Shown here piece after piece: positions 41,750-61,077 of a stretch of DNA of 61,077 nt. Location of the stretch: assembly GCA_017557325.1 (NCBI GenBank), contig JAFZAI010000083.1, positions 1 to 61,077 of the forward strand, in the 5' to 3' direction. The position numbers were made by a program, and so were the translations under genes. Position 1 is the first letter of the stretch. Each line of letters begins with the position of its first letter. The notes below the pieces were generated by a model. That model was not told the origin of the DNA. It searched no databases and was given only the letters and a program-made list of their open reading frames with translations. This DNA comes from Bacteroidales bacterium (GTDB lineage Bacteria > Bacteroidota > Bacteroidia > Bacteroidales > UBA932).

Positions 41750-41764
41750 AAGCAGTAGAATAAG

Positions 41765-41836
41765 TTGAGATATCAGGACTCGAACCTGAACTGAGGGAAC
41801 CAAAATCCCTAGTGCTAGCCATTACACCATATCTCA
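41765..41836 (-). tRNA. tRNA-Gln (anticodon TTG)
   Basis: Cloverleaf TGAGATA...AGGGA-TTTTGGT-TCCCT...GGTTCGAGTCC...TATCTCA-A; TATCTTTG promoter upstream. Confidence 0.95.
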
Positions 41837-42835: not shown

Positions 42836-43273
42836 TCAGGGCCTTTTCTCCCGGAAGAAATCGAGCATCAGGGAGGCGCATTCCTCGGAGAGGACGCCAC
42901 TCAGGACCTCGGTCTTCGGATGGAGCAACGACGGGCTGTAGAGGGAGTAACCCCTGCGCGGATCGGGAGCGCCGTAAACGATCCGGCCGACCTGCGACCA
43001 GTTCAGCGCACCGGCGCACATCGGGCAGGGCTCTACGGTGACATACAGGGTGCAGTCCGCAAGATACTTCGCCCCGATGGACTCGGTGGCGGCAGTAACC
43101 GCGATCATCTCAGCGTGGGCCGTGGCGTCGTGCAGGCGCTCGGTCATATTATGCCCGCTGCCGATGATCCGCCCCCGCGAGACGACGACCGCCCCGATGG
43201 GAATCTCCCCTTCCTCGCCGGCCTTGCGGGCCTCCCGGAGGGCTTCCACCATAAATTTTTCGTCCAAAGTCAT
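42836..43273 (-). CDS. tadA: tRNA adenosine(34) deaminase
   Basis: EIPIGAV, HN, TAHAEM, TVEPCPMCAGA and FF..KR motifs. Confidence 0.92.
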   Translation of the reverse strand: MTLDEKFMVEALREARKAGEEGEIPIGAVVVSRGRIIGSGHNMTERLHDATAHAEMIAVTAATESIGAKYLADCTLYVTVEPCPMCAGALNWSQVGRIVYGAPDPRRGYSLYSPSLLHPKTEVLSGVLSEECASLMLDFFREKRP

Positions 43274-60717: not shown

Positions 60718-60787
60718 AAGATTATTTCAAGAAAAAATTGCAGAATTTCAAAAACTTTGATTATCTTTGCAGTCCCTTTCGGGGAAT

Positions 60788-60860
60788 CTGGGTGTGGCGC
60801 AGTTGGTAGCGCACCTGGTTAGGGACCAGGAGGTCGCTCGTTCAAGTCGAGTCACCCAGA
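60788..60860 (+). tRNA. tRNA-Pro with anticodon AGG
   Basis: Acceptor CTGGGTG/CACCCAG, D arm GCGC-AGTTGGTA-GCGC, anticodon arm CCTGG-TTAGGGA-CCAGG, T arm GCTCG-TTCAAGT-CGAGT, discriminator A73; TATCTTTG promoter at 60762-60769. Confidence 0.92.
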
Positions 60861-60863
60861 CGC

Positions 60864-60910
60864 AAAAATCAAGCACTTGTGGACATTCCGCAGGTGCTTT
60901 GATTCTTTTC
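60864..60910 (+). terminator. Intrinsic terminator after tRNA-Pro
   Basis: AAGCACTTGTGGA-CAT-TCCGCAGGTGCTT followed by a T-rich tail. Confidence 0.75.
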
Positions 60911-60988
60911 CGGCAATCAGACAGCAATATCTTGGCAAATCCGCCGAAAATCGCTAACTTGCAGCGTTAAATCAAGCATTCCCCGATT

Positions 60989-61077
60989 ATGAAAAGAATC
61001 CTTCTCCTTCTTTACTCCATCGTCGCGCTCGTGATGCTCGGCAGCGTCAATGTTTATGCGCAGAACAAAAAGGACAA
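60989..61077 (+). CDS. Exported protein, 5' fragment (runs off the window)
   Basis: MKRILLLLYSIVALVMLGSVNVYAQNKKD signal peptide. Confidence 0.65.
   Translation, partial: MKRILLLLYSIVALVMLGSVNVYAQNKKD

Follow-up and report, generated by a model that had tools for sequence, protein, structure and literature searches.

The window, meaning the whole stretch of DNA analysed here (61,077 nucleotides), comes from a genome of 1.53 Mb (G000; 73% complete, 57.7% GC, 180 contigs) and carries a proline tRNA gene whose anticodon begins with A, together with its putative signals and, at some distance, a gene for a tRNA adenosine deaminase:

60762..60769, + strand: promoter-like TAnnTTTG element, TATCTTTG, 18 nt upstream of the tRNA gene
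60788..60860, + strand: tRNA-Pro(AGG), 73 nt, no encoded CCA, with the gene body called A below
60821..60823, + strand: anticodon A34-G35-G36, within the loop U32 U33 A34 G35 G36 G37 A38
60871..60909, + strand: terminator-like hairpin of 13 pairs (the hairpin itself at 60871-60899) with a T-rich tail
42836..43273, − strand: tadA, tRNA adenosine-34 deaminase, 145 aa, candidate editor, 17.5 kb from the tRNA

ARAGORN called tRNA-Pro(agg) at 60788-60861, and Rfam RF00005 covered 60788-60860 with its full model at 62.8 bits (gathering 29) and every stem paired, including the anticodon stem CCTGG/CCAGG at 60814-60818/60826-60830, in agreement with an initial annotation of this DNA that had read the gene as an intact tRNA-Pro with an AGG anticodon. 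The elements by which ProRS identifies bacterial tRNA-Pro are G35, G36, the C1-G72 pair, A73, and G37, and all of them were found here in a full cloverleaf. Minimum-energy folding did not return the cloverleaf, as is usual for unmodified tRNAs, and its result was not used. The initial annotation had also given the gene a promoter and a terminator of its own. The first of these stands as a promoter-like motif, since TAnnTTTG, which we take to be the Bacteroidota promoter consensus, occurs no more than 45 nt upstream in 25 of 30 AGG loci (counted without a shuffle control), and the second is weak when taken alone, with 2 terminator-like hairpins observed against 0.8 ± 1.0 expected. Across window positions 60868-61077, some 8 kb separate 60899-60965 from 60959-61077 in one contig of run X5, and splits occur there in other runs as well, which hints at a strain-variable insertion just past the tRNA terminator. 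An ordinary tRNA-Gln(UUG) gene lies at 41764-41836 (− strand).

In principle, A34 might have come from misreading or misassembly of a gene with a UGG, CGG, or GGG anticodon, and a bin that is 73% complete and divided into 180 contigs gives some room for it. The same tRNA, letter for letter, is nevertheless present in two other records (L002, from genome G014, and L097), AGG occurs in 85 further genomes of the genus, and where short contigs of 4 runs (2 studies) overlap 60797-60838, they agree on every letter, base 60821 being A; these contigs are common to several species, and none spans the site with 31 letters on each side. Because of the identical genes, the spread of AGG across the genus, and the run contigs, an assembly error is excluded, and we put its probability as negligible. 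In the one RNA run (X20), two contigs were found at the place of the tRNA, both of the UGG type and neither from the AGG gene, a gap in coverage that says nothing about expression. The runs that matched the window best are metagenomes from animal guts.

Distribution and descent of the AGG tRNAs

We surveyed 201 genomes of the genus (200 at ≥85% completeness plus G000) with a pattern for proline tRNAs that have A or G at position 34. Matches were obtained in 87 genomes, with AGG in 86 and GGG in one, leaving 114 with neither; the two anticodons never occurred together, and AGG was present in 65 of the 153 genomes of ≥90% completeness. The 20 tRNA genes of G000 include Pro(AGG), Pro(UGG), and Arg(ACG), with Pro(GGG) absent from the set, and a proline pattern that allowed any anticodon gave 453 matches, the 150 listed being UGG, CGG, or AGG only. 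The suspicion that Pro(GGG) is missing was thus borne out, with GGG in 1/201 genomes, and the AGG gene proved to be conserved among relatives (86/201) rather than private to one assembly or decaying. The sole Pro(GGG) of the survey (G115:C46:10490-10530) has a foreign-looking body, and contamination or transfer is possible. Because over half of the genomes show neither AGG nor GGG, AGG is an optional reader of CCC and CCU and not an obligatory substitute for GGG; genomes without both presumably rely on UGG plus CGG.

The initial annotation had proposed to look for other A34 tRNAs. With A, G, or U at position 35, none was found in the 201 genomes, all 88 matches being Pro(AGG), under a pattern that is blind to Leu, Ser, Gly(ACC), and purine-32 tRNAs and that matched 7 of the 20 tRNAs of G000 in its free-anticodon version. 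Thr(GGT) and Gly(GCC) were kept in 5/5 genomes.

By hand count the AGG genes have two bodies, A in 67 genomes and B in 19, with none carrying both. Body A, recognised by its CCTGG anticodon stem, U2-A71 pair, and 8-nt D loop, is close to UGG genes (82% identical to G000's own UGG gene) and near-invariant in its 67 genomes, with compensatory changes in the stems; body B has a CCACG or TCACG stem and almost matches the CGG gene found alongside it in those genomes. Records titled Ca. Cryptobacteroides (L112, L083) have the same two proline tRNA bodies as the genus, which is thus likely Ca. Cryptobacteroides. Outside the genus, 145 genomes of the same order had GGG in 75 cases and AGG in none, and the GGG genes of the order mostly show an A32-U38 loop, unlike either AGG body; AGG is therefore likely not a G34A change of GGG. 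Judged by their bodies, the AGG genes look to have arisen from UGG-like (body A) and CGG-like (body B) genes. On a tree built from RpoB and RpoC of 58 genomes of the genus, with 2 outgroups, the two bodies are intermixed, one basal clade is entirely without AGG, and the AGG state changes at least 11 times, gain and loss being indistinguishable on this tree.

The notion that A34 tRNAs other than Arg(ACG) are limited to a few Firmicute and Mollicute exceptions was too narrow. A GTDB scan gave at least 119 Pro(AGG) genes by ARAGORN among the 120 stretches listed, and titles among the matches listed include Bacteroidales, Cytophagales, Christensenellales, and scattered others. In a sample centred on a Fulvivirga record, AGG was present in 14 and GGG in 58 of 141 genomes, and in one centred on a Borkfalkia record the counts were 9 and 76 of 141, never both in one genome (hand counts). 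All 122 pattern matches among the GTDB AGG loci listed have U32, and GGG tRNAs are mostly A32 in three samples (the order and the Fulvivirga- and Borkfalkia-centred sets). The universal U32 fits recognition by TadA, but would fit tuning on the ribosome equally.

In a Clostridiales record (L131:138-316), Pro(AGG) adjoins Leu(AAG), making two non-Arg A34 tRNAs, and in L163:41-212, as well as in L090, L113, L119, and L156, it stands in tandem with Pro(CGG); only two positions separate the bodies of L163, a picture of gene duplication with a subsequent C34A change. Genomes of 0.9-1.1 Mb (G232 with locus L077, G272, G346, G235, and G317), one of them titled Amoebophilaceae, keep Pro(AGG) and tadA, and their Pro(AGG) has a GGG-like body in which U38 is kept and U32 replaces A32. 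Pro(AGG) was also seen under the titles E. coli, F. prausnitzii, Enterobacteriaceae, Succinivibrio, and Bacteroidaceae (L066, L102, L114, L073, and L123); some of these bodies look non-native to the title, and titles or bins may be wrong.

CCC codon use in genomes with and without AGG

The share of CCC among the proline codons of rpoB and rpoC had a median of 0.372 in 29 AGG genomes compared to 0.018 in 29 genomes without AGG. It was ≤0.06 in 28/29 genomes without AGG and ≥0.12 in 27/29 with AGG, the exceptions being the AGG genomes G112 (0.03) and G127 (0.08) and the non-AGG genome G177 (0.30; 93% complete). In up to 20 kb around tadA, counted in 40 genomes of each kind that were chosen from the best 150 TadA matches and not at random, the CCC median was 0.368 with AGG and 0.111 without, CCU was 0.204 and 0.343, and the C-ending share of five other four-codon boxes was 0.468 and 0.391, respectively. 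CCC made up 38% (0.383) of the 18,468 proline codons in the ORF set of G000, and the earlier impression that this codon is abundant and served by the AGG tRNA is upheld by these counts. Codon counts for Cytophagales and Christensenellales covered just 3-4 kb per genome.

In PGLS across 56 genomes, CCC was associated with AGG at t = 10.0 (t = 6.0 under Brownian motion), and no effect of AGG was seen on GCC, GTC, or GGC. Among 8 independent pairs, on average 6.8 went the same way and 0 the opposite way (median p = 0.016). ACC and TCC rose slightly with AGG in PGLS (t = 2.7 and 3.0; L181-L260), which is unexplained, and CCA in rpoB/rpoC dropped from 0.072 to 0.009 with AGG. The AGG gene was not found in G177 and G178 (93% and 86% complete), yet their CCC shares were 0.33 and 0.50 and their TadA has Gly26; both are probably AGG carriers with the gene unassembled.

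Neither CmoB over the cut-off nor a TrhO domain was found in the 5/5 near-complete genomes searched, and a UGG tRNA that reads CCC poorly would therefore fit. From codon use it is very likely that tRNA-Pro(AGG) functions as a CCC reader and that species without it cope by avoiding CCC. The initial annotation had argued that, if AGG has replaced GGG, the organism needs either a relaxed TadA or wobble by unmodified A34; neither AGG nor a relaxed TadA is strictly needed, because 114 of the 201 genomes are without AGG and GGG and avoid CCC instead.

A passenger role, neutral or mobile, as for a duplicate or the remnant of an integration site that translation does not use, is very improbable; the differences in codon use and in TadA would then have other causes. 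Such a passenger would suit the patchy presence (11 changes on the tree of 58 genomes), the variable neighbours, the mixing of two bodies over the tree, and the CCC values that are low in G112 and G127 and high in G177 without detected AGG, but it is at odds with a sequence that is near-invariant in 67 genomes with compensatory stem changes, with a promoter-like element in 25/30 loci, and with a proline-specific, twenty-fold difference in CCC that survives tree correction. Neither the passenger nor the error reading is tenable, and the function of tRNA-Pro(AGG), as predicted from codon use, is strongly supported by evidence that is indirect.

TadA and the state of A34

The TadA of the window scored 129.3 bits against NF008113, below the 150 cut-off; its HAE and PCxxC motifs are present, and the names of its 7 best PDB matches are those of adenosine deaminases, TadA-type or putative. 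TadA-level matches occur once per genome as a rule, and no tadA match was obtained in 4/86 AGG genomes vs 2/115 others, these missing matches being probably assembly gaps. A dedicated second deaminase was unsupported, the other deaminase-domain genes of G000 scoring far lower against TadA. The tRNA gene comes after a gene for an RluA-family pseudouridine synthase, and around the 30 AGG loci compared, the flanking sequences are for the most part unrelated to each other, forming five small clusters only; therefore, neither tadA nor the RluA-family gene is part of a module. We rejected a positional link between tadA and the tRNA, as the neighbours differ and no rluD orthologue lies beside the other 29 AGG loci. 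The presence of tadA in the same window, which the initial annotation had considered meaningful, is a coincidence that carries no weight, because the neighbours of the tRNA vary and tadA is found in 195/201 genus genomes irrespective of AGG. The anticodon loop of the G000 tRNA-Arg(ACG), C32 U33 A34 C35 G36 G37 A38, is two changes away from that of Pro(AGG). The T loop of tRNA-Arg(ACG) reads GTTTGA, with U for the usual C56, in 6/6 genomes (G000:C125:207-281, G074, G096, G044, G103, and G152).

We scanned the columns of 79 usable TadA sequences (G079 and G172 were left out) for association with AGG, and two codons of tadA are concerned:

43208..43210, − strand: codon of TadA Gly26 (P0001 numbering; S. 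aureus G22, E. coli R26), which tracks AGG
42956..42958, − strand: codon of TadA Arg110 (S. aureus K106, E. coli K110, a phosphate contact), with a weaker association

Position 26 was Gly in 30, Glu in 5, Asp in 5, and Asn in 1 of the 41 genomes with AGG, compared to Asp in 32, Glu in 3, and Gly in 3 of the 38 without. With tree correction in 54 genomes, it ranked first among the 60 TadA columns that could be tested (t = 4.84); none of 572 RpoB/RpoC control columns reached this value, and 1/572 matched its uncorrected p. GC content as the cause of the pattern was rejected, since GC3 adds nothing. In held-out genomes, with the prediction set beforehand, Asp26 was found in 5/15 genomes with AGG vs 13/15 without (Fisher p = 0.008, kinship uncorrected), and the named predictions held for G094 (Gly) and failed for G076 (Asp). 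Independent pairs gave 5.2 the same way and 0 the opposite way (median p = 0.06, short of 0.05). Among the Christensenellales, too, Asp26 differed between the two kinds of genome, being present in 0/9 with AGG vs 17/21 without; this count was made without a tree, and six of the nine seem to belong to a single clade. No such link between position 26 and AGG is seen in Cytophagales, where Gly is the common state (7/14 genomes with AGG, 19/26 without) and two AGG genomes have Asp. Gly is likewise the residue at this position in the TadA of S. aureus and in TadA of the B. subtilis type.

Residue 110 was rejected as a general determinant. Arg was present in 22/41 genomes with AGG and Lys in 36/38 without; the association is weak in the genus (pairs 2.0 vs 0, p = 0.5), was not repeated in the held-out genomes (Arg in 3/15 with AGG vs 1/15 without), and the residue is unchanged in Christensenellales. 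A difference at position 110 in Cytophagales (Lys in 3/14 with AGG vs 23/26 without) was found post hoc. Position 48 (43142-43144) is mostly Thr in the genus and in Cytophagales, where S. aureus has Arg44, and the same Arg-to-Thr swap is noted for yeast ADAT2 (PMC7713142); Thr48 occurs whether or not AGG is there and may form a permissive background.

According to a review of TadA, C35 bonds to the carbonyl of G22 in the S. aureus enzyme, and R26 and R152 narrow the base-35 pocket of the E. coli enzyme, where R26 is proposed to restrict base 35 (PMC10586758); the S. pyogenes paper describes this pocket as a likely site of TadA-tRNA co-evolution (PMC11472039). The reading that we prefer, to which, as to the editing of A34 as such, we give a probability of about 0.58, is that the tRNA reads CCC and CCU and that its A34 is at least partly converted to inosine by the ordinary TadA, with the base-35 pocket predicted to be opened by Gly instead of Asp at position 26. 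The tRNA would most likely be transcribed from a promoter of its own, carry proline, and serve both codons. In a genus without GGG, where AGG is patchy, an early loss of GGG may have let UGG, poor at CCC, take over, so that CCC was purged from the genes; AGG would then have come from UGG-like (body A) and CGG-like (body B) genes and not from GGG, and CCC use returns with AGG, as a correlation. TadA already takes the G37/A38 loop of Arg(ACG), and it would have to accept only C32>U and C35>G, which Gly26 may permit by making room for G35. The support that residue 26 lends to the expanded-inosine idea of the initial annotation appears real but indirect.

Codon use is silent on editing, since in E. 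coli and Salmonella an AGG tRNA with unmodified A34 decodes CCC and CCU to nearly the same extent (PMC11066159). The codon shift thus does not need inosine, and the preference between CCC and CCU has no power to tell I34 from A34. Unmodified A34 could do the work, with two G-C pairs at codon positions 1 and 2 allowing both CCC and CCU, and the TadA residue could track AGG by shared ancestry or as a side effect; we regard this joint reading as a serious possibility at well under even odds. It agrees with the behaviour of E. coli proL-AGG, which stays unmodified and is neutral (bioRxiv 10.64898/2026.05.15.725136), and with the absence of a residue-26 signal in Cytophagales and the paired p of 0.06. 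Asp26 is kept in 10/56 AGG genomes, among them G014, which has exactly the tRNA of the window, and CCC is used equally freely in AGG genomes with either residue (0.26-0.45 in 5 measured genomes with Asp26; medians for body A of 0.37 with Asp26 and 0.36 with Gly26). As the 201 genus genomes yielded no other A34 tRNA (A, G, or U at 35), only the proline box, where unmodified A34 works well, took this route. Decoding by unmodified A34 leaves unexplained, however, why, out of 60 TadA columns, it is the base-35 contact that ranks first, ahead of all 572 control columns, and why the pattern repeats in held-out genomes and in another phylum. A precedent for editing is that S. pyogenes TadA edits Leu(AAG) and E. 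coli TadA does not (PMC11472039); on the other side, just 2/4 A34 tRNAs are edited in O. oeni.

If the preferred reading, with inosine at position 34, is extended, gut Bacteroidales may have evolved a eukaryote-type Pro(IGG) with a plain homodimeric TadA, through an Asp/Gly pocket switch that was toggled repeatedly within one genus with CCC following, Christensenellales having done so independently and Cytophagales via other residues; we offer this wider picture tentatively, as slightly less than an even bet.

Why bacteria shun anticodons that start with A is an open question (bioRxiv 10.64898/2026.05.15.725136). About 11 AGG state changes and a twenty-fold change of CCC in core genes of a GC-rich genus make a replicated natural experiment on the path from tRNA to codon use. 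If A34 is edited, Pro(AGG) would be a third bacterial inosine tRNA type, a single TadA residue would be named as setting the choice of base 35, and the case would bear on the origin of eukaryotic ADAT breadth and on the role of sequence context for base editors derived from TadA; without editing, this would be a large natural case of unmodified A34 decoding.

Comparison with known A34 systems

A 2026 GtRNAdb survey describes all A34 anticodons as sporadic, with only Leu(AAG) and Thr(AGT) at clade level, in AT-rich genera of the Firmicutes and Mollicutes, and its available text does not mention Bacteroidota (bioRxiv 10.64898/2026.05.15.725136). Pro(AGG) is given for eukaryotes only in the accessible part of a 2021 review (PMC8007984). 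We found no published report of a natural Pro(AGG) in Bacteroidota in the full-text literature, and an earlier listing in subscription papers or supplements is possible.

Eukaryotic Pro(IGG), the product of ADAT2/ADAT3, has the same anticodon, and its GGG isoacceptor is likewise absent (PMC8007984). ADAT2/ADAT3 is a sequence-tolerant heterodimer that serves 7-8 tRNAs, whereas a single TadA orthologue is present here and the genus survey gave no further A34 tRNA of this kind; broad editing of the eukaryotic type, with several A34 tRNAs in place of G34 tRNAs, was not seen in that survey. The bacterial Arg(ACG)/TadA system employs the same enzyme family, and Arg(ACG) is present in G000, but the E. 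coli version is reported to require C35 and to leave AGG tRNAs unedited. Engineered Pro(AGG) tRNAs (the Salmonella proL G34A mutant of Chen et al. 2002, via PMC11066159 and bioRxiv 10.64898/2026.05.15.725136; E. coli proL-AGG; an orthogonal AGG tRNA) share the anticodon and read CCC and CCU. They are described as laboratory mutants of a GGG gene or as having a foreign body, and as unmodified, whereas here a natural UGG-like gene is kept across many species.

The Leu(AAG)/IAG system of Lactobacillales, with its widened TadA (S. pyogenes, PMC11472039; oral streptococci, PMC13249217; O. oeni), is alike in that a second A34 tRNA stands beside Arg(ACG), the G34 isoacceptor is absent, synonymous codon use is shifted throughout the genome, and base 35 differs from that of the Arg substrate. 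Unlike Leu(IAG), Pro(AGG) belongs to the proline box and has G35 rather than A35, its host is a member of the Bacteroidota with 58% GC whereas the known A34 genera are reported to be AT-rich (bioRxiv 10.64898/2026.05.15.725136), it is patchy within one genus and not fixed, and the codon shift is toward the C-ending codon. Editing was shown for Leu(IAG), and mRNA editing widened along with the second substrate in S. pyogenes, whereas for Pro(AGG) editing of A34 is predicted from sequences, and membership in this type of system hinges on inosine. Taken as a whole, Pro(AGG) here is real, functional on strong indirect evidence, and a variant of the Lactobacillales Leu(IAG) case.
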